Source of the DNA: a virus
Virus record (IMG/VR): IMGVR_UViG_3300045988_088856
Location: 1 to 42,175 of that record
Reading direction: 5' to 3' (one strand)
Length of the DNA: 42,175 nt
A program made the position numbers and the translations under genes. Under the pieces are notes generated by a model. That model had not been told where the DNA came from, ran no database searches, and was given only the letters and a program-made list of their open reading frames with translations. This document shows positions 1,220 through 30,728 of this stretch, piece after piece. Each line of letters begins with the position of its first letter. The first letter of the stretch is position 1.

Positions 1220-1306
1220 TATTATGATAGCGTGATTTAATTCACAGAGAGCGATGACCAGATACTGGGACATTGAGATTCCTCCCCTTAAAACATTTTT
1301 TTTGAA

Positions 1307-1337
1307 GACACCCCGTAGAAATATGGGGTGTTTTGTT
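1307..1337 (+). terminator. Rho-independent terminator
   Basis: Stem GACACCCC/GGGGTGT with a 10-nt loop, followed by TTTTGTT. Confidence 0.7.
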
Positions 1338-1389
1338 GTGCAGTGTACTATTAATTATTGTATATTTTTACAAAAAAACTCGCTTAGCC

Positions 1390-1417
1390 TTGCATAACTA
1401 TGTCAATGTGATATAAT
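1390..1417 (+). promoter_or_regulatory. Sigma-70-type promoter of the moron gene
   Basis: TTGCAT at 1390-1395, a 16-nt spacer, and TGaTATAAT extended -10 with TATAAT at 1412-1417. Confidence 0.6.
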
Positions 1418-1454
1418 AATATAACTAATTAAAAGAGAAAAGGCGGCGAATAGC

Positions 1455-2261
1455 ATGCTATTAGTTGATAAAGAAATAAAAAGATTATGCAATGACAGAA
1501 AGTTAATAAAGAATGGATATAAAGAAGAAAATGTTAATAGTATATCATATGATTTGACAATAGGTGAGTTTCTAGATTCGGATAAGCAATCTATAGATGT
1601 AATGCCTGGTGAATTTGTTATTATAAAGACGAATGAAGAACTTACAATACCGAATAATCTTACCGGACGTATAGGGGAGAAGAATTCATTGCTTAGGCTA
1701 GGGTTGGTGGTCGATGGTCCACAATATCAACCAGGGCATACAACATATGCCTTCTTGCGTGTTCAAAATATATCTAGTGCGGTTATAACTATAGAAAAAG
1801 GTCTATCAATAGCGCAAATATTTTTTGAAGAATTAAAAGATGAACCAGATATTACATATGACAAACAAGAAAATGCATCTTTTCAAAATGAACGAGAATA
1901 TCGTGGATTTGGAAAATATGAAGCGAAATATACAAAAAATTTAAAATCATTTGAAAAAGTCAAAGATGATATTGAAGGGATATCTAATAAAATATATGCT
2001 AATGTTTTAACATTAATGGGTGTTTTAGTTGCTATCTTCTCTATGCTTTCTATTAATTATCAAGCATTTACAGCCGCTGATTTGTCACCAAATTATGTTA
2101 TGGCTATGAACATATCTTTGGCATTTTGCATAGCCGTTATGATGGGTATGATATTTCTGATTATTAATGGACGAAAAAGCAAAGTGTTTACTATAGTTTA
2201 TATTTTAATTATTATTATGCTTGCATTTTTAGCATGGTTTTTTTCACATAAAATATTTTAA
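1455..2261 (+). CDS. dCTP deaminase/dUTPase-fold domain fused to a C-terminal multi-pass membrane domain (moron)
   Basis: The N-terminal ~150 aa align by eye to Dcd (SYDLTIG, PGEFVIIKTNEELTIPNNLTGRIGEKNSLLRLGL, QPGH..FLRVQN). The C-terminal ~85 aa form three hydrophobic helices. The gene is AT-rich and has its own promoter and terminator. Confidence 0.7.
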   Translation: MLLVDKEIKRLCNDRKLIKNGYKEENVNSISYDLTIGEFLDSDKQSIDVMPGEFVIIKTNEELTIPNNLTGRIGEKNSLLRLGLVVDGPQYQPGHTTYAFLRVQNISSAVITIEKGLSIAQIFFEELKDEPDITYDKQENASFQNEREYRGFGKYEAKYTKNLKSFEKVKDDIEGISNKIYANVLTLMGVLVAIFSMLSINYQAFTAADLSPNYVMAMNISLAFCIAVMMGMIFLIINGRKSKVFTIVYILIIIMLAFLAWFFSHKIF

Positions 2262-2263
2262 CA

Positions 2264-2299
2264 AAAGAGATGGCCGACAACCATCTCTTTTTTCTTTTC
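2264..2299 (+). terminator. Rho-independent terminator
   Basis: Stem AAAGAGATGG/CCATCTCTTT with loop CCGACAA, followed by a T-run. Confidence 0.8.
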
Positions 2300-2328
2300 C
2301 CAAACAAACGATTGAGAGGTGGTGAGGC

Positions 2329-3054
2329 TTGCCGAGAGCACCAGATCCCCGTGTCGAAGAGGCGAAGGAGCTGTTCGACCAGGGAATGAAATTAATTGAT
2401 ATTGCAAAGCGGCTTTCCGTTTCGGAAGGGACAGTCCGAAGCTGGAAGAGTAGATATAAATGGGGCAACGCAACGTTGCAAAAGAAAAAACGCAACGCTG
2501 CGAAACACCGTGGCGGTCAGCCAGGCAATAAGAACGCTGTCGGCCATGGCGCACCAAAAAAGAATAAGAATGCAGAAAAACATGGTTTCTTCTCGAAGTA
2601 TCTTCCGGAAGAGACCATTTCTATTATCCGGGACATTGACGAACAGGACCCGCTGGATATCCTTTGGGGGAATATCCAGATTGCTTATGCTGCCATTGTC
2701 CGGGCACAGCAGATTATGTATGTGCGGGACAAAGAGGATAAGACGATTGAAAAGGTCGAAGAAAAAGATGGAAATGTAATCGGAGAACGCTGGGAAGTAC
2801 AGCAAGCCTGGGACAAGCAGGCAACCTTTCTGAAGGCGCAGGCTAGGGCACAGTCGGAGCTTCGGTCCCTGATTAAGCAATACGATGAGCTGCTACATCG
2901 AAACTGGGATCTGGCCAGCGAGGAGCAGAGAACGCGGATTGAACATCTGCGTGCCAAAACGGAGCAGATTAGGGGCAGTGACCAGAATCCTATTGAGGAT
3001 AAAGTCCGGAAGTTGTTTGATGCCATAGGAGGTGCGTTGGATGAATCTGAATAG
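2329..3054 (+). CDS. terS: Terminase small subunit
   Basis: TTG start after GAGAGGTGGTGAGG. It has an N-terminal HTH (IDIAKRLSVSEGTVRSWKSRYKW) and GNKNAVGHGAPKKNKNAEKHG repeats typical of terS. It lies immediately upstream of terL. Confidence 0.8.
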   Translation: MPRAPDPRVEEAKELFDQGMKLIDIAKRLSVSEGTVRSWKSRYKWGNATLQKKKRNAAKHRGGQPGNKNAVGHGAPKKNKNAEKHGFFSKYLPEETISIIRDIDEQDPLDILWGNIQIAYAAIVRAQQIMYVRDKEDKTIEKVEEKDGNVIGERWEVQQAWDKQATFLKAQARAQSELRSLIKQYDELLHRNWDLASEEQRTRIEHLRAKTEQIRGSDQNPIEDKVRKLFDAIGGALDESE

Positions 3055-4294
3055 CATCTACACACCGAAGCAGATCGAGATTCTGAAGGCCTGCCAAAAT
3101 ACAGACTGGTTCATGTTGATTAATCACGGCGCAAAGCGTTCCGGGAAGACACAGCTGGACAATGACATCTTTCTGCAGGAGCTGATCCGGGTCCGCGGGA
3201 TTGCTGATCAGCTGGGAATTGATATTCCACAGTACATCCTGGCCGGTTATTCGATGGGGAACATCCAGGACAATATCCTCACAGAGCTGTCAAATAAGTA
3301 CGGCTTTGAGTTCAAATTTGACCGGTTCAATAATTTTACGCTGTTCGGAGTGAAGGTGGTGCAGACTTCCCACGGGAATATCAGTGGGCTTGGCCGGATC
3401 CGAGGCATGACATCCTTTGGAGCGTACATCAATGAGGCTTCCTTGGCGAATCAAGAGGTGTTCGATGAGATTAAGGCCAGATGCAGCGGCCCGGGAGCGC
3501 GGATCATTGCGGACACGAACCCGGACCATCCGGAGCATTGGCTCCTGAAAGATTATATCAAGTCTTCAGCAGAAGGGATTTTAAGCTTTCATTTTGCGCT
3601 GACGGATAACACTTTCCTGGATGATAGGTATGTGAAAAATATCAAGGAATCCACCCCTAAGGGGATGTTTTATGACCGCGGTATCCGGGGCTTGTGGGTA
3701 TCTGGTGAGGGTGTGGTCTATCCGGATTTTGACCAGAACGTGCATGTGATCACGCCGGAGCAGGCCAGGAGCATTATATTTGAGCGTGTTCTGGCAGGCG
3801 TAGACTGGGGCTGGGAACATTGGGGAGCCATCGTGGTGATCGGTGTGAGGGCCGGGAGTTATTACGTCATTGAAGAACATGCAGCGCAGCATAAGCATAT
3901 AAACAACTGGATAGCTGTAGCAAAGGATATTATCAGGCGGTATGGTAATATCCCTTTTTATTGCGATCCGGCAAGACCGGAACATGTGGCATCCTTCCAG
4001 GAAGCAGGAATCAATGCCTTCTTGGGAAACAATAGGGTGCTATCCGGCATCGAGGCAGTGGCAACGCTGATGAAAAATCGGCAGTTTTTCATTGTGTATT
4101 CCCGCTGCCCGCGGTTCCGGGATGAAATCTATAAATATATCTGGAAGAAGAATACCGGAGAACCGTTGAAAGAAAATGACGACGTTCTCTGTGCGATCCG
4201 GTACGGCATTTATTCAGATATGACAGTAAATAAAGTGGAACTGCCTGGTCAAAGTCGCATGGAACAGGCGAGGAGATTGAAAGGAATGTTGTAA
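3041..4294 (+). CDS. terL: Terminase large subunit
   Basis: ATG lies 8 nt after AGGAGG. The Walker A motif is GAKRSGKT. Size and position are typical of PBSX/headful-type terL. Confidence 0.9.
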   Translation: MNLNSIYTPKQIEILKACQNTDWFMLINHGAKRSGKTQLDNDIFLQELIRVRGIADQLGIDIPQYILAGYSMGNIQDNILTELSNKYGFEFKFDRFNNFTLFGVKVVQTSHGNISGLGRIRGMTSFGAYINEASLANQEVFDEIKARCSGPGARIIADTNPDHPEHWLLKDYIKSSAEGILSFHFALTDNTFLDDRYVKNIKESTPKGMFYDRGIRGLWVSGEGVVYPDFDQNVHVITPEQARSIIFERVLAGVDWGWEHWGAIVVIGVRAGSYYVIEEHAAQHKHINNWIAVAKDIIRRYGNIPFYCDPARPEHVASFQEAGINAFLGNNRVLSGIEAVATLMKNRQFFIVYSRCPRFRDEIYKYIWKKNTGEPLKENDDVLCAIRYGIYSDMTVNKVELPGQSRMEQARRLKGML

Positions 4295-4296
4295 CT

Positions 4297-5829
4297 ATGG
4301 CGGATGGAATGCTAAAAGTGAATGAATTTGAACACGGCATAGATGGACCGTATAACGTGCATAAGAGCTTCCAGCAGCTCTACGGCCCGGAGACCAACTA
4401 TTCCTACCGGGCGGACAGCGCAGAAGAAATACTGGGAGACTTGGGTAAGCTCCGGGAGATGATATTGGACCATTACCAGACCCAGTGCCCGAGGTTGGCG
4501 GCGCTGGACGATTACATGAAAGCCAGGAATGATGGCATCTATAACGATGACTGCCGGCGGATAGAGAAAGAACGGGCGGACCATCGGGCGGCTCACAATT
4601 TTGCGAAAATTATCAATGTGTTTGATGTTGGATATAATACCGGCGTCCCGATCAAGAAGGTCAGTGATATTGACCAGGTGAATGAGATCATTGCGGAGTA
4701 CGACCGGATTAATGACATTGAGGCGCTGGATAGTGAACTCTGGCGGGATATGAAAAAATACGGCAGGGCCTATGAGCTGCAATATCGGAACGAAAAAGAC
4801 GAGGACCGTTCAGTAATCAGTAACGTATTCGAGACATTTGTCTGCTATGGTACGGACGTGGAGCGAACGCCGCTGTTTGCGGTTCGGTATCCACGCTACC
4901 GTATTGGTACGCAGGAGAGGGTAAAGGTATTTGTTTACACAGATACAGAGGTCATTACATATAAATCCTGCGAGATGGCGGCGCTGAAGCTGGAAGAAGA
5001 GGGCAGGGAACAGCACCAGTGGGGAGAAGTGCCCGTCACAGAATATTCTCCGGACCGGTACCGGATGGGAGGATATGAGGATGTGATCCCGCTGATTGAC
5101 TTATATGATGCAGCGCAGTCTGATACGGCAAATTATATGACAGACCTCAACGAGGCCACCCTAGTCATTACCGGAGACCTGAATCTGCAGAAGTATTCCG
5201 CCAAAGATTTGGCGGAGATGAAAAAGGCAAACTTGTTGTTATTGGCATCCGGAATCAATCCGGATGGAAGCAGAGAACAGACCGATGCTAAGTATGTGTA
5301 CAAGCAGTATGATGTGACCGGCGCCGAAGCTTATAAAGACCGGCTGCAGAAGGATATCCATAAGATTTCCTTTGTACCGGACCTGACAGATGAAGCCTTC
5401 GCCGGCACCCAGTCCGGGGAAGCCATGAAATATAAATTGTTCGGCTTCCAGCAGATTGCAAAGACCGGGCAGCGGGGCTTTAAAAAGGGGCTCATGCGGC
5501 GGTACCGGCTGCTCATGAATATTAAAAACTTCGTCAATGAGGCGGACAACGATGACCTTGGGAATCTTACCATCACCTTTACACCAAATCTACCGAAAGC
5601 TGTCCTGGAGGAACTCAAAACTCTGGTGGACGCCGGCATGGAAGTTAGCCAGGAGACCATGATGGGGCTGGCGTCATTTATCGAAGACATTCAGGCGGAG
5701 ATGGAGCGGATCCAGAAAGAAAAAGAGGAAGAAGAGGCGGATCCGGTGATGGATCAGATGTTTGGAGGTGCGGCAGATGACCAGCCAAGAGTACTGGAAG
5801 AACCGGGAGACGGAACAGAGGAAACATAA
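4297..5829 (+). CDS. Portal protein (SPP1 gp6-like)
   Basis: The protein is 510 aa, lies directly after terL, and has the acidic C-terminus typical of portals. Confidence 0.85.
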   Translation: MADGMLKVNEFEHGIDGPYNVHKSFQQLYGPETNYSYRADSAEEILGDLGKLREMILDHYQTQCPRLAALDDYMKARNDGIYNDDCRRIEKERADHRAAHNFAKIINVFDVGYNTGVPIKKVSDIDQVNEIIAEYDRINDIEALDSELWRDMKKYGRAYELQYRNEKDEDRSVISNVFETFVCYGTDVERTPLFAVRYPRYRIGTQERVKVFVYTDTEVITYKSCEMAALKLEEEGREQHQWGEVPVTEYSPDRYRMGGYEDVIPLIDLYDAAQSDTANYMTDLNEATLVITGDLNLQKYSAKDLAEMKKANLLLLASGINPDGSREQTDAKYVYKQYDVTGAEAYKDRLQKDIHKISFVPDLTDEAFAGTQSGEAMKYKLFGFQQIAKTGQRGFKKGLMRRYRLLMNIKNFVNEADNDDLGNLTITFTPNLPKAVLEELKTLVDAGMEVSQETMMGLASFIEDIQAEMERIQKEKEEEEADPVMDQMFGGAADDQPRVLEEPGDGTEET

Positions 5830-7099
5830 TATCCGAGATGAGAAAGAATATCAGAAACGTATCCGGGAAATCTATCAGAATATGATTGATGAAGTGGATA
5901 AAGAGATCCATGGTTTCTATGGGAAGTATGCCAGCAAGGAAGGCATCACAATTTCCGAGGCCCGGAAGCGTGCAGCCAAGCTGGATATTGAAGCGTATGC
6001 CCGCAAGGCAAAAAAGTACGTCAAAGAGAAGAATTTCTCTGACGAGGCCAATGCAGAGATGCGGCTTTATAACATGGCTATGCGGGTGAACCGGTTGGAG
6101 CTTCTGAAGGCCAATATTGGCCTGGAGATGATTGCCGGATTTGATGAATTACAGAAATTTTTCGACGAAAAGCTGACAGATAGAGCTATGGGTGAATTTG
6201 AGCGCCTGGCGGGTATTCTTGGGAAAACAGTTCAGGACAATGCCAAGGCAGCGCATGCCATTGTAAATGCATCGTTCCACAATGCCACGTTTTCAGACCG
6301 TATCTGGATGTATCAGGACATGTTGAAAGCTGAATTATCCAACCTGCTGCAGACTGGGCTGATCCGGGGGCAGAATCCCCGGAAATTGGCTACCCATCTC
6401 CGGAAGCGGTTCGGGGTCAGCCAGAGTAATGCAGAGCGGCTGATGATCACGGAGCTGGCAAGAGTCCAGACAGAAGCGCAGAAGCAGTCTTTTGAGCGGA
6501 ATGGCTTTGACGAATATACTTTTCTTGCGCTGGGAACTGCCTGCCCGATCTGCAGGGCTCTGGACGGGAAACATTTTGAGATTAGGAAAATGATGCCCGG
6601 AGAGAATGCTCCGCCGATGCATCCCCGCTGCCGCTGCAGCGCCTCAGCCCACATGGATAGCGAAGAATACGAACAGTGGCTGGATGGGTATCAGCAGCAT
6701 GGGCTTTCATTCGATGATTGGAAAAAGCAAAATTCCGTTGCAAAGAAATCTGGCTCTGGTATAATGAAGATGAATTTAAAATATTTTACAAATATACCTG
6801 AAGAGAAATTTACAAAATATGCCTTAAATTATGAGAAGGCACCAGATAAAGCGAAAGCGTTTGAGGCGGCGCTGGGCTATACAAAAGACAATTACCAGGA
6901 TTTGATAGATGACATTGCTGTTCATTTTGACGAGGAAAAACTGGTCGAAAAAGGGGATAACGGCTTTGGCATGAGATATTCTCAGGTAATGAATCTAACG
7001 GGACCAAATGGAAAGACTGCTAAAGTACTAACTGCATGGATTTATGATGAACAAATAAAAGATTTCCGTCTGACATCGGCGTATATTGATAAGAGGTGA
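5777..7099 (+). CDS. Head morphogenesis protein (SPP1 gp7 / Mu F family) with DUF6883-like C-terminal extension
   Basis: ATG lies 8 nt after GGAGG. The MuF motif is ITELARVQTEAQ...CPICRALDGKHF...PPMHPRCRCS. The C-terminal ~110 aa (EEKFTKYALNYEKAPDKAKAFEAALGY...GMRYSQVMNLTGPNGK...LTAWIYD) resemble DUF6883. Confidence 0.8.
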   Translation: MTSQEYWKNRETEQRKHNIRDEKEYQKRIREIYQNMIDEVDKEIHGFYGKYASKEGITISEARKRAAKLDIEAYARKAKKYVKEKNFSDEANAEMRLYNMAMRVNRLELLKANIGLEMIAGFDELQKFFDEKLTDRAMGEFERLAGILGKTVQDNAKAAHAIVNASFHNATFSDRIWMYQDMLKAELSNLLQTGLIRGQNPRKLATHLRKRFGVSQSNAERLMITELARVQTEAQKQSFERNGFDEYTFLALGTACPICRALDGKHFEIRKMMPGENAPPMHPRCRCSASAHMDSEEYEQWLDGYQQHGLSFDDWKKQNSVAKKSGSGIMKMNLKYFTNIPEEKFTKYALNYEKAPDKAKAFEAALGYTKDNYQDLIDDIAVHFDEEKLVEKGDNGFGMRYSQVMNLTGPNGKTAKVLTAWIYDEQIKDFRLTSAYIDKR

Positions 7100-7104
7100 T
7101 GAGG

Positions 7105-7269
7105 TTGAAATTAGAAATGTACGATAAAGTTCTTTTAAAAAGTGGTGAGACAGCATATATTGTGGAAATTTACGATAGCGGAAAAGCCTACGAGATGGAC
7201 ATTGATAAATCAGATGGATCCACAGAGACAGACACGGTATGGCCGGATCAAATTGAGAAAAAGTTATAG
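7105..7269 (+). CDS. Small DUF4926-like protein (54 aa; below the ORF-track length cutoff)
   Basis: TTG at 7105 (or ATG at 7117) follows AGAGGTGA. The peptide is MKLEMYDKVLLKSGETAYIVEIYDSGKAYEMDIDKSDGSTETDTVWPDQIEKKL. A terminator follows. Confidence 0.55.
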   Translation: MKLEMYDKVLLKSGETAYIVEIYDSGKAYEMDIDKSDGSTETDTVWPDQIEKKL

Positions 7270-7304
7270 ATACCACCAGTCAGAAATGGCCGGTGGTATT
7301 TTTA
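7270..7304 (+). terminator. Rho-independent terminator
   Basis: Stem ATACCACC/GGTGGTAT followed by TTTTT. Confidence 0.7.
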
Positions 7305-7336
7305 TACCCATTTTTAAGAAAGGAAAGGTGAATGAT

Positions 7337-7492
7337 ATGGGAGACATGATGAGTTTTCCGGAGACTCCTGAGGAATTTTTGAAAGAGTACTCTTTCAAGG
7401 ATAAGAAAGGGGAATATACAAATGGATCAGAGTTGATTCCTGTATTTAGGGTAGAACAGATGATTGATTATTATTTCAGAGAAAGGCGGTGA
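7337..7492 (+). CDS. Hypothetical small protein (51 aa)
   Basis: ATG follows AAGGAAAGGTG. The upstream part of track ORF 7142-7492 overlaps the terminator, so the shorter start is preferred. Confidence 0.45.
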   Translation: MGDMMSFPETPEEFLKEYSFKDKKGEYTNGSELIPVFRVEQMIDYYFRERR

Positions 7493-7547
7493 TCCAATAA
7501 TCTCCCACCGGCGGGGAATGACCGGAATACAGAAAGGATGTGCAAGA

Positions 7548-7871
7548 TTGAAAGTTTCAATATTAGGAACAGAATATGACATAGACAGAAGACGAGTAGA
7601 AGATGATATATTGCTGGAGAGTAGAGCTGGATATTGTGATAATACAACCAAAAGTATTATTACGTGTATATTGAGACCAGAACTTGGAAGTTCAGTTGAC
7701 GTAGAACCAGAAGCAAAAAGACTGCTCAGACATGAGATTATACATGCTTTTATGTATGAAAGTGGCTTGGACGAAAACAGCAAATGGGGTGCAGATGAGG
7801 AACTCGTTGACTGGATTGCTATTCAGTTTCCGAAAATCTTGAAGGTATTTCAGAAGGCAGGATGCTTATGA
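7548..7871 (+). CDS. Putative zinc metallopeptidase (HExxH)
   Basis: HEIIH motif in RLLRHEIIHAFMYESGL. The start is uncertain: TTG 7548 after AAAGGA, or ATG 7518. Confidence 0.5.
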   Translation: MKVSILGTEYDIDRRRVEDDILLESRAGYCDNTTKSIITCILRPELGSSVDVEPEAKRLLRHEIIHAFMYESGLDENSKWGADEELVDWIAIQFPKILKVFQKAGCL

Positions 7872-8140
7872 AAAAACTGAATATGAACAGTATAATTAAG
7901 GTTAAATTGACTCCTTTTGGGGCGGATATATTTTACCACCAGTACGATGAGTTAAACAAAAAAGTATTAAATGCTGGAGGAAGACCAATACACCCCAGAA
8001 TGCCACAAATAGATAACAAGGGCTTTTCAAAATTCCAGTTGCATCATTTTATTAATTTATATGGCGATTATATGACGGTTGATCAAAAAAACGTTGTTGA
8101 AGATATATCTATATACATTGATGAGGACGATTTGGAGTGA
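7862..8140 (+). CDS. Hypothetical protein
   Basis: The ORF overlaps the upstream stop. ATG at 7862 or 7868. Confidence 0.5.
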   Translation: MLMKKLNMNSIIKVKLTPFGADIFYHQYDELNKKVLNAGGRPIHPRMPQIDNKGFSKFQLHHFINLYGDYMTVDQKNVVEDISIYIDEDDLE

Positions 8141-8173
8141 AATGATACAGAAAAATTGGAAGGAGTGGTGTGA

Positions 8174-8461
8174 TTGATTGCGGTACGTGTCCAGGAGGAC
8201 GGAATAACAGTGTCCGGCCATGCGGGATTTGCAGGAGTCGGAAAAGATATTATCTGCGCAGGAGTAACGGCACTGACTCAGACACTGATCAAGTCACTGA
8301 ATGACTTGACAGAAGATAAAATTGAATATGAAATGTCGCCCGGAAGGGCTGATATAAAATACAGGGATCTGTCAGAAGCAGGAAAGCTTCTGGTGGATTC
8401 CTTTTTCATTGGCATTTGTTTAATTGCCGATGAATTTCCGGATTATGTCCGGATAGAGTGA
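8174..8461 (+). CDS. prp: Prp-family cysteine protease (ribosomal-processing protease homologue)
   Basis: SGHAGFAGVGKDIICAGVTAL carries the His/Cys dyad pattern of Prp/YsxB. The gene lies just upstream of scaffold and capsid, which both carry LQLFA motifs. Confidence 0.75.
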   Translation: MIAVRVQEDGITVSGHAGFAGVGKDIICAGVTALTQTLIKSLNDLTEDKIEYEMSPGRADIKYRDLSEAGKLLVDSFFIGICLIADEFPDYVRIE

Positions 8462-21153: not shown

Positions 21154-21246
21154 CAATTAATGGATTGGTGTATTGGTTGGTGTATGGGATTGGTGCAACC
21201 TTTTCTGTATAATTTGATTATCAATTATACGGAGGAGGTATTTTTT

Positions 21247-22239
21247 ATGAAGGAAAAGCTGATATCTGCTGTATTGGAGAAGATGCATGGACATCTGCAG
21301 CCTGATCAGGCGACGATGCTGCAGTGGGTGATGTCGGTTGTGCTGGACGATTATTCGGTGGAGCGAAAATCCACCGAAGTCACCGTGTACGATGGCAGCG
21401 CGGAGGAGTATGCAAAGAGATTTTTGGTGGTCAAACATCTGGCGGGGTGCTCTGAGAGGACCATCGAATCATACCGTTTTAACTTGCAGAAATTTATCCT
21501 GAATCTGCGGCGGCCATTGCTGGAAACAGATACAAATGACATCCGGTGTTATCTGGCGGCGTACAAGGAGCGGCGGAAAGTCAGCAATACCACCCTGAAT
21601 AATATGCGCGCCAGCTTATCCAGTTTCTTTACGTGGTTGCATGAGGAAGGGCTGATTGCCAAAAACCCAATGCGCCGGATTCCGCCGATTAAGGCACCGA
21701 AGGTAATCCGCCAACCGTTTACGCCGGAGGATATGGAGCACCTGCGGATGGAGTGCCAACAGGAACGCGATCTGGCCATTATGGAATTTTTGTATTCCAC
21801 CGGCGTTCGCGTCAGCGAAGCAGTACAGCTAAACCGTGACCAGATTAATTTTATTGAAGGAGAGTGTATCGTATATGGAAAGGGGGCGAAAGAGCGGGAA
21901 GTATTCATCAATCCGCGGACATGTATCCATTTGAAAAAGTATCTGGATTCCCGGACGGACAACAACCCAGCATTATTTGTCTGGACGAAAAAACCGCATC
22001 GGAGACTATCCGAAAAGGGAATCTGGGCGTTGCTGCATAATCTGGGGCAGCGGGCCGAAGTGGAGAAAACGCACCCGCATCGATTCCGGCGGACACTGGC
22101 AACTGATGCCCTGAATCGGGGGATGCCGTTGCAAGAGGTGCAGCAGATGCTAGGGCATGAAAAGGCGGATACAACGTTGATTTACTGTACAGTGACCAAA
22201 GATAGTGTAAAGATGTCGCATCGTAAATATATAGCATAA
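21247..22239 (+). CDS. Tyrosine site-specific recombinase (XerC/D / Rci-like), candidate shufflon invertase
   Basis: ATG follows GGAGGAGG. It has an N-terminal SAM-like domain, Arg in STGVRVSEA, HRFRRT, LGH and the catalytic Tyr in LIYCTV. Confidence 0.85.
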   Translation: MKEKLISAVLEKMHGHLQPDQATMLQWVMSVVLDDYSVERKSTEVTVYDGSAEEYAKRFLVVKHLAGCSERTIESYRFNLQKFILNLRRPLLETDTNDIRCYLAAYKERRKVSNTTLNNMRASLSSFFTWLHEEGLIAKNPMRRIPPIKAPKVIRQPFTPEDMEHLRMECQQERDLAIMEFLYSTGVRVSEAVQLNRDQINFIEGECIVYGKGAKEREVFINPRTCIHLKKYLDSRTDNNPALFVWTKKPHRRLSEKGIWALLHNLGQRAEVEKTHPHRFRRTLATDALNRGMPLQEVQQMLGHEKADTTLIYCTVTKDSVKMSHRKYIA

Positions 22240-22321
22240 CTTGTAAGTAATCCTTACAGGTTCATTTAAGCCTGCGGAAACGGAGGTTTTATTTGTATGT
22301 CATGATTTCGTAACTATAAAT

Positions 22322-22347
22322 AAGGTTCGCTCTTAATTAAATGGGAA
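22322..22347 (+). repeat. Left arm of 26-bp inverted repeat (AAGGTTCGCTCTTAATTAAATGGGAA)
   Basis: It matches the reverse complement of 22931-22956 at 25 of 26 positions. Confidence 0.9.
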
Positions 22348-22349
22348 TA
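22336..22349 (+). repeat. Shufflon crossover site C (ATTAAATGGGAATA)
   Basis: Identical 14-mer. TAA at 22334-22336 immediately precedes the TTA AAT GGG frame. Confidence 0.8.
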
Positions 22350-22687
22350 TGAACTGGTCCGATGCAATCACCCTGGGATCTACTTACGGCATTGAAATGA
22401 AATATCGGTATAATGCCAAATTTGTAGAAATACAATACGGTGGGACATTACCTGATGGTGTTGGATTTGGTGCAGGTACAAATGGTTATGAGTTTCCATC
22501 TATGCCGGAAGAATTCCTTCCAGGTTCAAATATTCGGCAACCGATTTTTTGCCCTGGGAACGGAAACAAACTATGTATTCGTATATATCCGTGGGCTACA
22601 GACAAATGGTCTATAGCCCCTGGAAGTATGGGGCTTACCTCCGTACCAGAGTATATTGCAGGAACGTTCGTATACGCTAGAAGGTAG
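22337..22687 (+). other. Silent RBP cassette 3
   Basis: The frame LNGN-MNWSDAITLG...FVYARR* opens exactly at the crossover site. There is no RBS before the internal ATG at 22349. Confidence 0.7.
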
Positions 22688-22695
22688 ATATATGA

Positions 22696-22941
22696 TTATT
22701 CGAAATAAATAACCCTAATATAATAATTTCCGGATGTAACGGAATTTCCTGTCCACGGATTAAAGACTCGATACCAAGCTTGACTATCAGTCGACATTTG
22801 TCGGAGTTCGTATTGTTCGTTTAATAAGATAACATTTATTAAACGTTCGTCAGAACAAATATGCCTTACATTAAACATACCGTGCTCGTTGAGAGTTACT
22901 GAATCATGTTTATACACAATTCTTGTTAACTTCCCATTTAG
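22696..22941 (-). other. Silent RBP cassette 4
   Basis: The frame LNGKLTRIVYKHDSVTLNEHG...YYIRVIYFE* opens at site D, with TAA immediately 5'. It is convergent with cassette 3, with an 8-nt gap. Confidence 0.7.
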
Positions 22942-22942
22942 T
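22929..22942 (-). repeat. Shufflon crossover site D (inverted ACTAAATGGGAAGT, 12/14)
   Basis: The + strand reads ACTTCCCATTTAGT. Confidence 0.7.
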
Positions 22943-22956
22943 TAAGAGCGAACCTT
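22931..22956 (-). repeat. Right arm of 26-bp inverted repeat
   Basis: The + strand reads TTCCCATTTAGTTAAGAGCGAACCTT. Confidence 0.9.
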
Positions 22957-22997
22957 CACGGGACCTTCGGGTCTTTTTTTTGATGGAGGTAATAAAA

Positions 22998-23543
22998 TTG
23001 GGAAAATTATTTGATATTATTCCGACAACAAACAAAGCAAGAAAAAAGAAGTATCCATACAAGATCAAGTTTACGGATGGACGTGTAGTACCACTGCCAT
23101 CACAGTACGATTTTACAGACAGCAGCTTTATCCGCCGGCATGGCTGTATTATAGCCGCTTTTTATATGGGTCTGCGATTTGTTGGCGTAAAAAAATCAAT
23201 GAAAAAATGTCTGAAATATTTGCAGGAGAATCATCCGAAGGGTAGTCATATCAATTACTGTCTGCGACAGGTTTGTACAGCTATTAATAAACTGGCTCCG
23301 GGAACTCCGGCAAAGTTTTATGAGAAAATCAGTAAAGCGGAAATGAAGAAAGCTCTGAAAAATGGTCATATGGTTTTGTATACCGAGAAAAATCCGGTAC
23401 ACACGGCCGTTATCCTGTGGAATGGCCGGAAATTTAAACGATTTTCAGACGGCAAATACAAGTCGGTAACGGTAGCCTGGGAGATTCGCAAACGCTATGT
23501 TAATGACTGGTACGGCGGCTGCGTGGTTGTCAAAAAATCATAG
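22998..23543 (+). CDS. Hypothetical protein, possible papain-like Cys/His fold
   Basis: TTG lies 8 nt after GGAGG. RRHGCIIAAFYMG and PVHTAVILWNG could form a Cys-His dyad, which is speculative. The track start at 22923 would span crossover site D and was rejected. Confidence 0.45.
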   Translation: MGKLFDIIPTTNKARKKKYPYKIKFTDGRVVPLPSQYDFTDSSFIRRHGCIIAAFYMGLRFVGVKKSMKKCLKYLQENHPKGSHINYCLRQVCTAINKLAPGTPAKFYEKISKAEMKKALKNGHMVLYTEKNPVHTAVILWNGRKFKRFSDGKYKSVTVAWEIRKRYVNDWYGGCVVVKKS

Positions 23544-25816: not shown

Positions 25817-26014
25817 ATGGACGAAGGAATTTTAATCAAAGATTTGACATCGACCAGTACGCTGTCTGATACAGAATATATGATAACTGGCTCATCGGAC
25901 ATCAAGAAAATTTCTATGGCCAATTTTATTTCCCAAGTAAAAGCAAAGCTGGGCTATGGGGATATCACGCAAGACGATATCGATGAGATTTGTGTAACGA
26001 CAGAAGGAGAGTGA
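25817..26014 (+). CDS. Small hypothetical protein with ITQDDIDEICVTTE motif
   Basis: The C-terminal motif and ~45 nt of DNA resemble 20349-20393. Confidence 0.5.
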   Translation: MDEGILIKDLTSTSTLSDTEYMITGSSDIKKISMANFISQVKAKLGYGDITQDDIDEICVTTEGE

Positions 26015-26019
26015 TTAGT

Positions 26020-26763
26020 ATGGCGTTAAAATTTAGAGATGAACTGGCGCATAAGAGCAATTACGGTGGCACACGTAGCACGAGCGATATCAAATACATC
26101 GTAATCCACTACACCGGAAATGACGGCGATACTGCCGCCAACAACTGTCGGTATTTTCAGGGCGCAAACCGGCATGCCTCTGCTCACTACTTCGTGGACG
26201 GCGGGGCATATGTCTATAATTCCGTACCGGTCAAATACGTAGCATGGTCCGTCGGCGGGTTCTATTCAAAATCTAACGGCGCCGGCACTTACTATCAGAA
26301 GTGCACCAACGCGAACAGCATCAGCATTGAGATGTGCAACTGTGTGAAATCTGTTCCGGATGATGTGTTTGACCAGACGGTGGAACTAACAAAATATCTG
26401 ATGGAAAAATATGATATTCCAGCCAACTGTGTTATCCGTCATTGGGATGTTAACGGAAAATCCTGTCCGGCCCGATGGACGGGCAAAAATAACGATGGCT
26501 GGGAAGACTTCAAAGATGCAATCAAAGAAAATGATGATTACTTAAAAGAAAGGGTGGAAGGCGTGAAGTATTTTAGCAAAAATAAAAAAGCAAATGATAT
26601 TAAGGAATTTCTGCACAATCGGGAATTCGGAGCAGGAGAGAATAATCTGTCAAAGATTGCAGCAGCGAACTGCGAGTCAAAAGAATTAAAAGATGCCATG
26701 TTTGCTTTGGCTGAGAAAGGGCTGCTGGTTAAGCCCGACGGATTAAACAAAAAAGACGATTAA
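26020..26763 (+). CDS. Endolysin, N-acetylmuramoyl-L-alanine amidase (Amidase_2/PGRP)
   Basis: ATG follows AAGGAGAG. The motifs are YIVIHYTGNDGDTA, SAHYFVD, SISIEMCN and RHWDVNGKSCPARW. Confidence 0.85.
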   Translation: MALKFRDELAHKSNYGGTRSTSDIKYIVIHYTGNDGDTAANNCRYFQGANRHASAHYFVDGGAYVYNSVPVKYVAWSVGGFYSKSNGAGTYYQKCTNANSISIEMCNCVKSVPDDVFDQTVELTKYLMEKYDIPANCVIRHWDVNGKSCPARWTGKNNDGWEDFKDAIKENDDYLKERVEGVKYFSKNKKANDIKEFLHNREFGAGENNLSKIAAANCESKELKDAMFALAEKGLLVKPDGLNKKDD

Positions 26764-27044: not shown

Positions 27045-28520
27045 TTATGAATAATAGTAATACAGGCTAAGAGAATCGGTCTGGCGATCGTAGACAACCT
27101 TTTCAACCACGGAACGGATGGCAGACGCTTTTCTATCGTAATCAGCGTTCTCGTCCTTCAGCACATCGACAGCAGTCCGGATGCCGGCCAGAATGACCGG
27201 AGAATAATCAATATCGGCAGTGGTGGTCTTTGCCTTTAATAGGGATTCCAGCTCCGCCCGCTCTTTTTGTAAGATCTCTTTATTCTCTTTATATTCCGCC
27301 AAAGTGTCTACGCCATTTCGGTACGCTTCCTTGATGCGGGACTCTTTCTGCTCCAGCTTCTGCAGCTGTTCTTCCAGCAGGCTGGTGTCCTCATCGGTCG
27401 GGCGCCGGTTCTTCAGTAATTCATAATCAATGGTATTGGTTTGTAGTGTATCTTCCAGGGCGGCGATAACTTCCTGCTCCAGCTTTTTGCCGGGGATGCC
27501 ATTGGATGTGCTGCACTGCCCCTTGGTGTAACCGTGACATTGAAAATATTCATACCGGCTCTTACCACTCTTGTTCATGGTATTGTGATAGGAGAGAGAG
27601 CGACCGCAGTTCGGACATTTGACGATGCCGGATAGCCAGTGCTTCCGCAGGCTGATCTTGGCGGCTTTCGGTGCAAAATCATGCAGCCGCTTCTCGTGTG
27701 CTTTATCCCACAGATCCTCCGGGATGATGGCCGGATGATTGGATTTTCGGATGATGCCGTTCTCTGCGTTCTTCAGTTTCCTTTCTTTTGTATTCCCGTC
27801 CCAGCGGACATACCCCTTGTAAAACGGGTTGTCAATAATATACTGTACACCGCGGTTGTCGAAGTTGTTTCCGCGCTTGGTCTTGTATCCGAGACTATTC
27901 AAATCCTTAGCAATCTGCAGGAAGGACATACCATTGATATAGTTGTCATAGATCCTGCGGATGATCCGGGCCTCCTCCGGGACAATGACTGGCGGGTGCC
28001 CTTTGGCTTTGACTGCATAGCCCAGCGGTGGTGCCGTCTGAAATCCACCCCGCAGCGCTTTCTCCGTCATGCCACGCTTTACGTCTTCGGCCAGACGCAC
28101 AGAATAGAACTCATCCATCCATTCGATGATTCTCTCAATCAGGTCCCCGAACATTCCGTCAATGACCGGTTCCGATATGCTCACGACATCCACACCGCAT
28201 TTATTCCGCAGCAAAGATTTATAGACGATGCTTTCTTCCTGATTTCGGGCAAATCGGGAAAATTTCCAGACCAGAATCACATCGAATGGCCGGGGCGTTG
28301 TTTTGGCGGCGGCAATCATGCGCTGGAACTGCGGACGCTTCTTGGCAGATTTGCCGGATATACCGCTTTCAATGTAGATGTTGTCAGATGGCAGATAGAT
28401 ATGATTTTTCTTGGCGTAGTCTCTGATCAGACGCTTCTGGGCGTCTGGAGAGAGCTCCTCCTGCTTGCCGTGGGTGGAAACCCGGATGTAGGCGGCGCCG
28501 GTACGGGTTGTGGTTGGCAT
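27045..28520 (-). CDS. int: Large serine recombinase (integrase)
   Basis: It has an N-terminal resolvase domain (AAYIRVST), a recombinase domain, a zinc ribbon (CPNCGRSLSYH...FQCHG) and a C-terminal coiled coil. Confidence 0.9.
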   Translation of the reverse strand: MPTTTRTGAAYIRVSTHGKQEELSPDAQKRLIRDYAKKNHIYLPSDNIYIESGISGKSAKKRPQFQRMIAAAKTTPRPFDVILVWKFSRFARNQEESIVYKSLLRNKCGVDVVSISEPVIDGMFGDLIERIIEWMDEFYSVRLAEDVKRGMTEKALRGGFQTAPPLGYAVKAKGHPPVIVPEEARIIRRIYDNYINGMSFLQIAKDLNSLGYKTKRGNNFDNRGVQYIIDNPFYKGYVRWDGNTKERKLKNAENGIIRKSNHPAIIPEDLWDKAHEKRLHDFAPKAAKISLRKHWLSGIVKCPNCGRSLSYHNTMNKSGKSRYEYFQCHGYTKGQCSTSNGIPGKKLEQEVIAALEDTLQTNTIDYELLKNRRPTDEDTSLLEEQLQKLEQKESRIKEAYRNGVDTLAEYKENKEILQKERAELESLLKAKTTTADIDYSPVILAGIRTAVDVLKDENADYDRKASAIRSVVEKVVYDRQTDSLSLYYYYS

Positions 28521-28768: not shown

Positions 28769-29734
28769 TTAAATTTTAGCGCCTTTCTTACGATTACAAC
28801 GCCAGCAAAGCGTTTGCAAATTCTCTTCAGTGGTCAAACCTCCTTTAGAGACTGGTATGATATGATCAATTTCAAGAAGAAGATTTGGTTCTTGCTCAAC
28901 AGAAGCGCCACACTGCTTACATGTGAATCCGTCACGCTCCTTGATATGCTGACGAAGCTTGCTGGTCATAAGGGCTCGTTGACCGGCAACACTCTTTTTA
29001 AATTTAATCTTTTCAGATAAAAACGTAACAAATTTATTCAGATTCTCGATATCCATTACAACATCGCATTCAGTGGAAGCGTTTCCTCCAGAACTGATAT
29101 ATTTAAAAATGTATTTTGGAAAATAATCCGTACTCATATCAATTTCTTCAAAACCAAGTTTTTGCTCCAGTTTCTTTTTGCTGAATTTTTTTATAAGAGT
29201 AGGAATTTCAGTTTGAATACTATCAAGAATTTGTTTCTTTTCTGCTTGTAAATGATTCTTTCCTTCCTCAGCCGCCTCAAAATTATTTAAAATGTTCTCA
29301 AAACCTGTAAGGTATTCTTCGGTGGCTTTTATACCGAAGTATTTACAAATATATTCAAATGGTTTCTTGCGTGCGTTATCACAAACTGTGCGGGAACAAT
29401 TATGTATATTTGGGGAATATTGCTGTTCTTTTAAATGTTTTCTTTTATAATCCCATTTACTGGAATCGCTATAAGTTGCATTGCCGTAATCTGTCTTGTC
29501 TGCCGGTAAAGCAGTGTGTTTCAAATTTTCAATATGCTCATTCAGTTCATTGCAATCATTGATGTATGCATCTATACGCTGTTTAACATCTGTAAATTTT
29601 GTACTTTTATAATAAAAAGATTCATATATTTTCCAAACGACATAGATGGCAGCAAGTAATAAAAAAATTGGCCAGATAGCACTTATAAAATATATAATCA
29701 ATGCTATGATAATAATGGCTACAATAAATTGCAT
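28769..29734 (-). CDS. Membrane-anchored HNH endonuclease-domain protein (moron)
   Basis: ATG at 29734 lies 5 nt after AAGGAGG. It has an N-terminal hydrophobic hairpin (MQFIVAIIIIALIIYFISAIWPIFLLLAAIYVVW). The C-terminal HNH is RDGFTCKQCG...LEIDHIIPVSKGG...NLQTLCWRCNRKKG. The gene is AT-rich. Confidence 0.75.
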   Translation of the reverse strand: MQFIVAIIIIALIIYFISAIWPIFLLLAAIYVVWKIYESFYYKSTKFTDVKQRIDAYINDCNELNEHIENLKHTALPADKTDYGNATYSDSSKWDYKRKHLKEQQYSPNIHNCSRTVCDNARKKPFEYICKYFGIKATEEYLTGFENILNNFEAAEEGKNHLQAEKKQILDSIQTEIPTLIKKFSKKKLEQKLGFEEIDMSTDYFPKYIFKYISSGGNASTECDVVMDIENLNKFVTFLSEKIKFKKSVAGQRALMTSKLRQHIKERDGFTCKQCGASVEQEPNLLLEIDHIIPVSKGGLTTEENLQTLCWRCNRKKGAKI

Positions 29735-29777
29735 AATATCCTCCTTTGTAATAAATATCATCATAATTATTTTTTTA

Positions 29778-30233
29778 TCAATTATATGTGTAAAATTTTT
29801 TTGCCTCTATATTTTTGAACTCCATAATCATTTCTGTGTATCCCAGCATCCGAGCAATTTGTTCTTTGGTCAGATCAGGATTGGAATAGATTATTTCATC
29901 TGGTACTAAGAGTTCCGCCGCAAAGGTATTGGCTTCGTTTTCCTCTTTGGCTTTATTGAAAAATGTACTGCCGTAGAAATAGCAGTCATTTTTCCAATGA
30001 AGTCTTGAGTGACCCAGTTCGTGGCTTAGGACTACTTTTTCCAAGGGCGTGTCAATAATGCTGCTGTTTAGCATAATGCATTTCTGCCGTTTGATGAGCA
30101 GATAACACCCCATGATCTTTCCTAAATCCCCGATCTGAACCAAGACATCGGTACAATCACATAATTCATATGGATTGCGCGTGTGATATTTTCTTACGAG
30201 CTGATTCACGATGCTCTTGATATCCCGCTGCAA
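29778..30233 (-). CDS. immA: ImmA/IrrE-family zinc metallopeptidase
   Basis: It carries the HELGH motif and lies directly downstream of the XRE repressor, as in ICEBs1 immR-immA. Confidence 0.8.
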   Translation of the reverse strand: MQRDIKSIVNQLVRKYHTRNPYELCDCTDVLVQIGDLGKIMGCYLLIKRQKCIMLNSSIIDTPLEKVVLSHELGHSRLHWKNDCYFYGSTFFNKAKEENEANTFAAELLVPDEIIYSNPDLTKEQIARMLGYTEMIMEFKNIEAKKFYTYN

Positions 30234-30241
30234 ATTATCAC

Positions 30242-30658
30242 CTACTTTTCCCCTTTGTTTTTGTTGGGGTTGTATTTTACTTTGTTAATCTCTTTTACAG
30301 TCGTTACCAAAGAATTAAGCTGGTTGCGGAACAAAAGTTTTGTCTGTTCATCCATTTCTTCTCCGTCGTAGAACAACGGTGCTCCATCGTTGGAATCTAA
30401 TTTTTCCATCAATTCATTGACGGTTTTTGAGATGTCCCGTTTATCTTTATTTGTTAATCCCTTTTCTGTCTCCCCATTCAATAAGTAATCCATAGTTACA
30501 CCAAAATATTTTGCAACTGTATTTAACTTTTCTGCATTAGGTGTAGATTTATCCCATTTAACAATGGTTCCATTACCAAAACCAAGCTCTGCCTCCAAAG
30601 TGGGAAGGCTTATTCCTTCGGCATTGGCTAATTCTTTAATTCTTTCTTTTAAAGTCAT
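30242..30658 (-). CDS. immR: XRE-family repressor (CI/ImmR-like)
   Basis: ATG at 30658 follows AGAGGTGG. The HTH is ISLPTLEAELGFGNGTIVKWDKSTPNAEKL. The longer track ORF would run through a promoter. Confidence 0.8.
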   Translation of the reverse strand: MTLKERIKELANAEGISLPTLEAELGFGNGTIVKWDKSTPNAEKLNTVAKYFGVTMDYLLNGETEKGLTNKDKRDISKTVNELMEKLDSNDGAPLFYDGEEMDEQTKLLFRNQLNSLVTTVKEINKVKYNPNKNKGEK

Positions 30659-30699
30659 AAGCCACCTCTTTCTACAAGAAAATTTTCTCGAAAAAATAC

Positions 30700-30728
30700 T
30701 TGACAACAAGAAAATATTCTCGTATTAT
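30700..30728 (+). promoter_or_regulatory. Rightward (lytic) promoter TTGACA-N17-TATTAT
   Basis: Read directly. An operator copy occupies the spacer. Confidence 0.65.

Follow-up and report, generated by a model that had tools for sequence, protein, structure and literature searches.

What might a lone AT-rich gene do when it lies just in front of the packaging genes of a temperate phage and encodes a protein that resembles a dCTP deaminase (Dcd) tied to the membrane? This question is raised by the left end of the IMG/VR virus record IMGVR_UViG_3300045988_088856, the 42,175 nucleotides of which were analysed as a whole (hereafter the window) and read as a complete temperate phage. The coding sequence in question (1455-2261, + strand) specifies a protein of 268 amino acids (aa), in which a pseudo-Dcd domain is followed by a coiled-coil stalk and three transmembrane (TM) helices. 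It is not a chance open reading frame (ORF), because 454 database clusters match it at E <= 1e-3, of which the best 120 are full-length and conserved. A preliminary description, made from the sequence without database searches, had proposed that this is a moron encoding a nucleotide-binding sensor that gates a membrane effector. We consider it probable that the protein has some anti-phage or exclusion role, by whichever mechanism, and regard the more specific proposal, a one-protein defence in which a ligand-sensing pseudo-Dcd is coupled to a membrane effector, as about evenly balanced between right and wrong.

Architecture of the protein

Residues 1-150 (1455-1904, + strand) had been assigned by eye to the Dcd/dUTPase family, and profile and structure searches place the domain firmly inside this superfamily. 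The Pfam model PF22769 (DCD) matches with 70.5 bits (E 2.3e-19; gathering cutoff 27), a match that signifies membership of a broad domain family only and not of an enzyme family. Indeed, the Dcd equivalog model TIGR02274 scored 72.9 bits, under its cutoff of 92.8, and the dUTPase model PF00692 scored 21.1 bits, just under its cutoff of 22; the catalytic Asp of motif III (I/V-D-x-G) is absent as well, and the protein does not belong to the trimeric dUTPases (PF00692, TIGR00576). An AlphaFold model of the monomer, with 30 homologs in the alignment, has a mean predicted local distance difference test score (pLDDT) of 83.7, exceeding 90 over residues 1-130. Foldseek matched its beta-barrel to 2qxx, 2v9x and 1xs1 (Dcd of Mycobacterium tuberculosis and Escherichia coli) with E values of 1.7e-12 to 4.4e-12 and TM-scores, normalised to the target, of 0.7-0.83, the highest being for archaeal Dcd-like dUTPases (0.83). 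The search with the whole model against the Protein Data Bank (PDB) was dominated by this domain and is uninformative on the membrane part.

Besides the fold, which is shared with Dcd and bifunctional Dcd-dUTPases (1xs1, 2qxx; E ~1e-12), the protein has in common with these enzymes the 'M.L.D..I' and 'SYDL' motifs, a KxS..R.G phosphate-binding loop with its Arg, and the aromatic and Gly residues of the C-terminal arm. Sequence identity to Dcd is ~23%, and the domain has a remodelled pocket comprising K76, N77, S78, R81, Q92, H95, T97, R102 and N105. Residues were mapped through HMMER alignments to 2qxx, with the numbering checked at A115 (using the A115V variant entry) and at E129. On this mapping, the catalytic Ser102 of M. 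tuberculosis Dcd corresponds to Asn77 (not Ser78), Asp119 of 'IDPG' to Gln92 and the catalytic Glu129 to Arg102, whereas Arg106 is kept as Arg81; the triad S102/R106/E129 is equivalent to S111/R115/E138 of E. coli Dcd. Two of the three residues of the deaminase triad are replaced, leaving Arg alone, the dUTPase-type Asp is also lost, and the Phe/Trp after the PG is His95, all of them differences that are conserved family-wide. The preliminary alignment by eye had seen the exchange of Glu for Arg, which holds in the HMMER alignment; the site is more extensively remodelled than was noted there, with Ser and Asp replaced too and Arg81 kept.

Across 30 close and 40 diverse family members (28-45% identity for the latter), N77, R81, H95, T97, R102 and N105 are near-invariant, N77 and R102 being invariant in the close set, which argues that the pocket has changed otherwise than by decay. 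None of the full-length DCD-bearing members among the 40 has regained Ser, Asp or Glu at a catalytic position, the lone outlier, P0221, having no recognisable Dcd domain; in the various members of the family, Gln, Phe, His, Asn or Tyr takes the place of the dUTPase Asp. Residues of the C-terminal arm are likewise conserved (Y135, F143, E146, G153 and Y155), suggesting that the lid with which Dcd and dUTPases close over the nucleotide may be retained. In these alignments, the Ser and Glu of deaminases are gone from the domain, as is the Asp of dUTPases, and a strictly conserved, re-tooled pocket (Asn77, Arg81, His95 and Arg102) is kept.

The Dcd-like domain leads into a linker and an amphipathic stalk helix (residues 153-179, cytoplasmic; 1911-1991, + strand) that is continuous with the first TM helix. 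In the AlphaFold model, a helix at residues 153-162 precedes one long helix at 166-207. The stalk has an a/d heptad pattern at 166, 169, 173, 176 and 180, with a hydrophobic periodicity that is conserved in 30 family members and stays in register into TM1, where the invariant Asn183 takes the next core position. In line with the three hydrophobic C-terminal helices of the preliminary description, hydropathy and the model give TM helices at residues ~180-202, 214-238 and 243-265. TM1 (1992-2060) bears the motif IYANVLTLMGVLVAIFSxLSIN with invariant N183, G189, F195 and N201, and TM2 (2094-2168) lies between the invariant N219 and N238 and contains the invariant G231. Both are highly conserved, whereas TM3 (2181-2249; all three on the + strand) is hydrophobic and variable in sequence; the basic loop GRKSK before it is predicted to be cytoplasmic by the positive-inside rule. 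The C-terminal region gave only sub-threshold matches in Pfam and PHROGs (DUF1345, 0.069; Sip4, 0.12), with no described holin or membrane effector family, and the PHROGs matches were confined to the Dcd part.

The C-terminal region was used for profile and exhaustive searches. The exhaustive search, made with the C-terminal 114 residues, returned 91 clusters at 50% identity, with the DCD domain in nearly all full-length ones. The stalk and TM1 motif (Y-x-N-x-L-T-x-M/I-G...F-S...N) was also found behind other N-terminal domains, namely BlaI/TrmB-type winged helix-turn-helix domains (P0175-P0180; E 1.6e-9) and uncharacterised domains (P0221/P0222, P0249 and P0259; E 1.7e-7 to 9e-4 against 1.8 billion sequences). 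The stalk and TM helices form a portable module. One distant member, P0257, has sub-threshold holin-family matches.

Among the proteins with other sensors, P0175 (187 aa; L049:7001-7564) joins a winged-helix domain through a coiled coil to the TM module, and in 22 of the 23 contigs read its gene is flanked by hsdS and hsdR in a Type I restriction-modification (R-M) operon (L049:3693-10998). Genes linked to Type I R-M systems include those of PrrC, cell-death effectors that act as a back-up, and of RonA, a small TM protein (bioRxiv 10.1101/2023.04.06.535777). By analogy, P0175 is a candidate for a back-up effector linked to R-M in the way that PrrC or RonA is, and its position gives independent, associative support for the module as an effector. 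The same operon contains an extra 199-aa ORF between hsdM and hsdS, with an AAA_15/AAA_21 ATPase encoded upstream.

The cassette, its slot and its family

The gene forms part of a mobile cassette with an approximate extent of 1262-2311 (+ strand), delimited by DNA homology with a copy in an unrelated phage, L001. An intrinsic-terminator-like hairpin with a U-rich tail was found upstream by folding (1305-1344, + strand; hairpin 1305-1334, then UUUUGUUGUG), with a free energy (dG) of -19.6 kcal/mol, a z-score of -5.8 and 0/200 shuffles as good. It was missed by the consensus terminator scan, which sees 9 pairs and a 10-nt loop (limit 3-8), whereas the folding tool finds 13 pairs and a 4-nt loop. 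Next comes a sigma-70-type promoter with an extended -10 element (1390-1417, + strand), read from the sequence as TTGCAT (1390-1395), a 16-nt spacer, TG (1409-1410) and TATAAT (1412-1417). The pattern TTG-N16-TGnTATAAT has 2 matches in the window against 0.03 expected by chance; the consensus promoter scan missed this one because its -35 hexamer has only 3/6 matches. A probable ribosome-binding site, AAGGCGG (1440-1446, + strand), lies 8 nt 5' of the ATG. Downstream, the consensus scan placed an intrinsic terminator with an 11-bp stem and a 7-nt loop at 2263-2299 (+ strand; hairpin 2263-2291, T-run to ~2299; dG -13.4, z -5.5 by folding against shuffles). The GC content of the gene is 0.294, compared to 0.475 for the rest of the window. 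The preliminary description had read from the sequence a terminator at 1307-1337, the promoter, a strong terminator at 2264-2299 and an AT-rich composition, and each was recovered here, with minor shifts of coordinates for the two hairpins.

Pairwise alignment of window positions 1220-2335 with L001 7473-8935 showed that the L001 copy is 78% identical. This phage, which carries an HNH gene and an SPP1-type portal, has no neighbour genes in common with the window. Similarity is continuous from ~1262 to a shared AAACAAACGA at ~2302-2311, and the flanks are unrelated. L001 keeps the -35 element (TTGAAT versus TTGCAT), TGATATAAT at equal spacing and the ribosome-binding region; the stem of the downstream terminator is identical, with differences only in the loop, and an upstream hairpin stands at the equal position with a different stem sequence. 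Conservation of the order terminator, promoter, gene and terminator in an unrelated phage therefore identifies a mobile unit of ~1.05 kb. The insertion boundaries were taken from L001 because only L051, a relative of the window phage, keeps the late regulator and it has other cargo. With its own promoter and terminators, its deviant composition and its absence from 80 phages with related terS, the gene has the anatomy of a moron, as had been proposed, and 1262-2311 is a self-contained, horizontally mobile single-gene cassette in which a constitutive-type promoter and the gene stand between two terminators. Immediately upstream of the cassette, L001 has genes for tRNA-Ile(tat) (7572-7644) and tRNA-Met(cat) (7730-7802), and the window has no tRNA genes.

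The cassette lies between two backbone genes. The final one 5' of it encodes a probable late transcriptional regulator (752-1219, + strand; phrog_11237, 3.3e-21; phrog_248 'transcriptional activator', 2.3e-5), of which a 61%-identical homolog is equally placed in L051, and the first one 3' of it is terS, for the terminase small subunit (2329-3054, + strand; phrog_509, 8.5e-91), whose TTG start codon at 2329 is only ~18 nt from the right end of the cassette. This slot was surveyed in 80 IMG/VR phages with a terS 53-90% identical to that of the window, and 0/80 carry this gene. Instead, varied AT-rich cassettes of one to three genes were found upstream of terS, with a GC content of 0.20-0.32 against 0.36-0.50 for the backbone. 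The three nearest ORFs upstream of terS form 86 clusters in total, and a few phages are nearly empty at the slot (for example L082, with a gap of ~217 bp). The closest relative, L051 (terS 90%, same regulator 61%), has a different gene of 322 aa and GC 0.32. A scan of 40 representative cargo proteins identified a defence dGTPase (L113:1991-3313; PADLOC, 3.7e-105) and both components of PDC-M02 (PDC-M02A/B; L053:2820-3935; E 4.8e-152), together with PDC-S33 (L116), Type II methyltransferases, a RelA_SpoT protein, a Panacea-domain protein, DUF4365 and M78 peptidase domains, and most of the scanned proteins had no match. The regulator-terS interval is a hypervariable cargo/defence hotspot of a gut Firmicutes siphovirus lineage, of which no description was found in the literature search.

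Most of the recurrent cassettes at this slot have no PADLOC match (thresholds 1e-5 to 1e-8) and are candidate new defence systems. They include a trio of 327-, 131- and 236-aa genes (components in 6 to 9 phages), a pair of 316- and 196-aa genes in 4 phages and a 302-aa gene in 9. The slot intervals extend 0.2-2.3 kb 5' of terS in L051-L130 (for example L054:1738-3820, L057:2334-3871, L083:2412-3320, L076:1649-3872 and L051:2967-3935).

Homologs of the window protein, of which the best 120 of the 454 clusters come from Lachnospiraceae, Clostridium, Roseburia, Ruminococcus and Dialister, are named only 'dCTP deaminase', automatically, or 'hypothetical'. Searches of INPHARED and PLSDB (tblastn) found ordinary soluble Dcd genes only and no full-length member, and a structural search of BFVD gave matches to the Dcd/dUTPase domain only (TM-score <=0.48 normalised to the query) and no full-length match. 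No description of the Dcd-membrane architecture or of the TM module was found in Pfam, PADLOC, PHROGs, INPHARED, PLSDB, BFVD or the literature search. The protein belongs to an undescribed family, in agreement with the preliminary remark that its architecture was not recognised.

The gene is always solitary: the 280 neighbour ORFs at 31 loci contain no cluster that occurs at more than 3/31, and no conserved partner gene (antitoxin, cyclase or other) was found at these 31 loci. Its GC content is 5-21 points below that of the flanks in 23/29 loci. Four different phages carry it, just before the packaging genes in the window, L001 and L011 and beside holin and endolysin genes in L012, and one copy stands at the edge of an element with a tyrosine integrase and PemK. 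Some copies adjoin M78 peptidases, RosmerTA (RmrA, 1.9e-132; RmrT), PifA or an NDT effector of the retron type. In a raw count of the 131 nearest neighbours at 27 loci, most of them chromosomal, a few match RmrA, RmrT, NDT_II-A, PifA or PDC-S33 strongly and the majority are housekeeping genes. At L008:4335-7842 (also in L009 and L010), a chromosomal member lies directly 3' of genes for a DUF5986 protein, a protein with a helix-turn-helix (HTH) and an M78 peptidase, and a 521-aa FRG-domain protein. This locus looks like a small defence island; the HTH and M78 protein is RosmerTA-like, and strong PADLOC matches to RmrA and RmrT occur in the neighbour set.

Proposed function and alternatives

Characterised Dcd and dUTPases are trimers with ligand sites at the subunit interfaces, and their C-terminal arm orders over the bound nucleotide. 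In the mechanism we propose, the prophage (or the chromosome) would express the protein as an anti-phage system that needs no second component. The pseudo-Dcd, lying in the cytoplasm and probably trimeric as in related proteins, would bind a small ligand at the subunit interfaces, most likely a (deoxy)nucleotide, and its C-terminal arms would run directly into the coiled-coil stalk, likewise trimeric, and on into TM1. If infection alters how far the ligand sites are filled, whether through collapse of a pool, a surge or a phage-specific nucleotide, the signal may reach the membrane helices, and these would render the membrane permeable or depolarised (abortive infection) or might prevent entry. 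Trimer formation, the identity of the ligand, gating, membrane damage and the defence phenotype are all steps that we infer. The preliminary description had called the protein prophage-encoded; the gene is not specific to prophages, many copies being solitary chromosomal genes. The idea of an exclusion or abortive-infection protein is itself strengthened by the moron, the cargo hotspot, the conserved remodelled pocket and the portable module.

A bolder version, which we think unlikely, is that the family represents a new class of ligand-gated suicide channel derived from a dead enzyme, in which a trimeric pseudo-Dcd, on binding a nucleotide between its subunits, would open a nine-helix pore via the ordering of its C-terminal arms and a trimeric stalk. 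Such a channel would be a bacterial intracellular analogue of the trimeric nucleotide-gated P2X channels. In a variant included in this version, the pseudo-Dcd would be a decoy guarding against phage inhibitors of host Dcd/dUTPase, or a detector of phage-modified deoxynucleoside triphosphates. The stalk and TM helices would in that case be a general plug-in effector combined with DNA-binding and other sensors, including a back-up in Type I R-M operons.

Several observations weigh against a ligand-sensing defence protein. PADLOC gave no match to the 268-aa protein (E <= 1), and no source consulted for homologs holds a family name beyond automated labels. Most chromosomal copies are found among housekeeping genes (ATP synthase, his operon, glycosidases and cobW/cellulase genes), and recognisable defence islands hold only a minority of them. 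Residence in a hotspot is guilt by association, as slots of this kind also carry toxin-antitoxin, methyltransferase and non-defence genes. The structure was predicted as a monomer, with only moderate confidence for the membrane part (pLDDT 64-84), and the putative binding of a ligand by the pseudo-Dcd is proposed from residue conservation. In addition, the two strong terminators of the cassette stand between the late regulator and terS. The gene could also be transcribed late, and it is possible that late transcription begins upstream and crosses the terminators with the help of antitermination or a processive late complex, or that a late promoter lies inside the right end of the cassette.

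The alternatives differ in which of these features they explain. Superinfection exclusion without cell death would have the membrane protein block the entry of phage DNA at the inner membrane, with the pseudo-Dcd serving as an oligomerisation scaffold or binding a phage component. Lactococcal Sie2009-type and P22 SieA-type proteins are precedents for blocked entry, and a prophage-borne membrane protein with a constitutive-type promoter, in moron slots typical of such genes, would suit this role; abortive infection and superinfection exclusion are inseparable on the present evidence. We nevertheless find a pure exclusion protein improbable, as the conservation of both the pocket (N77, H95 and R102) and the arm (Y135, F143, E146, G153 and Y155) favours a ligand-dependent function over a scaffold, and the occurrence of the module on a cytoplasmic DNA-binding-type domain in an R-M operon fits a triggered effector better. 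To a similarly small degree we credit an accessory function outside defence, either a nucleotide- or metabolite-responsive membrane channel or regulator of gut Firmicutes, or a selfish addiction/toxin module. This would account for the many solitary copies among housekeeping genes with no defence neighbours and for the absence of a match to any defence model, but it sits poorly with the recurrence of the gene in slots for phage cargo where known defence genes are found, with its patchy, AT-rich and mobile character and with the link of the membrane module to an R-M operon, and the 31 loci contain no conserved antitoxin-like partner.

A membrane function in the phage life cycle (holin, antiholin, lysis timing, or an anchor for replication or packaging) is suggested by the three TM helices, by the holin and endolysin beside the L012 homolog and by the sub-threshold holin-family matches of P0257. 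We consider it very unlikely: the endolysin of the window is ~24 kb away (25990-26763), its own terminators insulate the gene, many copies lie on chromosomes outside prophages, and absence from all 80 relatives with the same packaging module implies that the phage can dispense with it. A holin in particular was rejected on this dispensability (0/80 relatives) and on the chromosomal copies. The significant Dcd-family similarity and the automated 'dCTP deaminase' annotation of some homologs would suit an active dCTP deaminase or dUTPase that is tethered to the membrane and acts on nucleotide pools, be it an auxiliary metabolic gene or a dCTP-depleting defence. We give this reading hardly any credence, given that Ser is replaced by Asn, Glu by Arg, and Asp by Gln or Phe in all but one of the 40 diverse members (P0221, with no Dcd domain), that the scores fall below the TIGR02274 equivalog and Pfam dUTPase cutoffs, and that crystals of E. 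coli Dcd with substrate, product or inhibitor trapped in place were obtained from E138 variants (PDB 1xs4, 2j4q and 2v9x). The active enzyme was rejected on its catalytic residues.

Returning to the proposed sensor-effector, comparison with known systems helps to define what is new in it. Dcd itself is soluble and ~190 aa long, whereas the window protein adds the coiled-coil stalk and three TM helices. The preliminary description had drawn a bridge to dCTP deaminases that act as anti-phage defences, a bridge that does not hold: the dCTPdeaminase of PADLOC and DefenseFinder maps to the zinc-dependent CDA clan (MafB19-deam, Bd3614-deam and dCMP_cyt_deam_1), whose fold is unrelated to Dcd/dUTPase, and the window protein, with the Dcd fold instead and no PADLOC match, has only the name and the theme of nucleotide pools in common with it. 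Recognising that the anti-phage 'dCTP deaminase' and Dcd are unrelated in fold clears up a confusion of names.

The trimeric dUTPases of staphylococcal phages (PDB 3zez, 3zf4 and 6h4c) likewise use a dUTPase fold for signalling in phage-related conflict instead of metabolism. They derepress staphylococcal pathogenicity islands (SaPI) via Stl, and nucleotide-dependent ordering of their C-terminal motif controls partner binding. Unlike the window protein, however, they are soluble enzymes with catalytic activity that bind a repressor and lack a membrane domain, and their structural likeness to it is weak (TM-score ~0.5 normalised to the target, root-mean-square deviation ~11 A). The same principle, by which differing sensors are coupled to one unchanging module that disrupts the membrane, is seen in RonA of Ronin, in PrrC-type systems and in TM effectors of the CBASS, Pycsar and SLATT types, and the R-M linkage of PrrC and RonA is comparable to the position of P0175. 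These systems differ in that they show no sequence likeness in Pfam or PADLOC, whereas here sensor and effector form one polypeptide and the sensor has the Dcd fold; no signalling-nucleotide synthase was found near the gene at the 31 loci. The only dUTPase domain in DefensePredictor belongs to a system that is predicted and unvalidated and is made up of a MazG-C kinase, a dUTPase and aGPT-Pplase, in a soluble multi-domain context.

As to the slot, P2/P4 cargo hotspots and lambdoid morons likewise offer interchangeable, AT-rich and independently transcribed cargo, including known defences, at a fixed position; the difference here is the regulator-terS interval, in a gut Firmicutes siphovirus lineage, with most cargo having no known function. 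A fused sensor and membrane effector in a prophage moron is thus a familiar arrangement; undescribed are the fold that serves as sensor, the module that serves as effector and the hotspot. Defence catalogues built on E. coli and Bacillus cover gut Firmicutes poorly, and if the proposal is true, the gene belongs to a widespread single-gene defence family in these bacteria (Lachnospiraceae, Ruminococcus, Dialister and relatives). To our knowledge, it would be the first case in which a Dcd/dUTPase fold, fused to a membrane effector, serves for sensing and not for catalysis. It would also define a portable effector module of coiled coil and three TM helices that is used with several sensor domains, and would mark out the stretch from regulator to terS in a common lineage of gut phages as a hotspot rich in cargo, most of it uncharacterised cassettes.

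Other features of the phage

Behind terS, the late region continues with terL (3032-4294), followed by head and tail genes and, further on, the endolysin gene (25990-26763). A serine integrase (27045-28520, - strand) and an ImmA-like protease with an XRE repressor (29778-30709, - strand) come next, and beyond the latter pair lie apparent replication genes. Between the serine integrase and the ImmA-like protease/XRE pair, which is a classical moron or defence position, a 331-aa ORF (28769-29764, - strand) with a local GC content of ~0.31 encodes a C-terminal HNH nuclease domain (PHROG E ~1e-16).

The second match to TTG-N16-TGnTATAAT, at 6738-6765, coincides exactly with a fall in GC content from ~0.52 to ~0.37-0.39 over ~1.7 kb (6750-8460). 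The fall begins within the last ~115 codons of a minor-head (MuF/gp7-like) ORF (5762-7099), and the low-GC region spans the small ORFs 7096-7269, 7142-7492, 7464-7871, 7862-8140 and 8174-8461. Here the phage may have a second region of cargo, or else a C-terminal extension of MuF type followed by genes that belong to it. Midway through the late region, a tyrosine recombinase (21160-22239, + strand; phrog_1, 8.8e-51) is followed on its 3' side by an AT-rich stretch (22200-23400; GC ~0.37-0.39) with the unannotated ORFs 22349-22687 and 22923-23543, and this could be an invertible or inserted segment near the tail-fibre and lysis genes.

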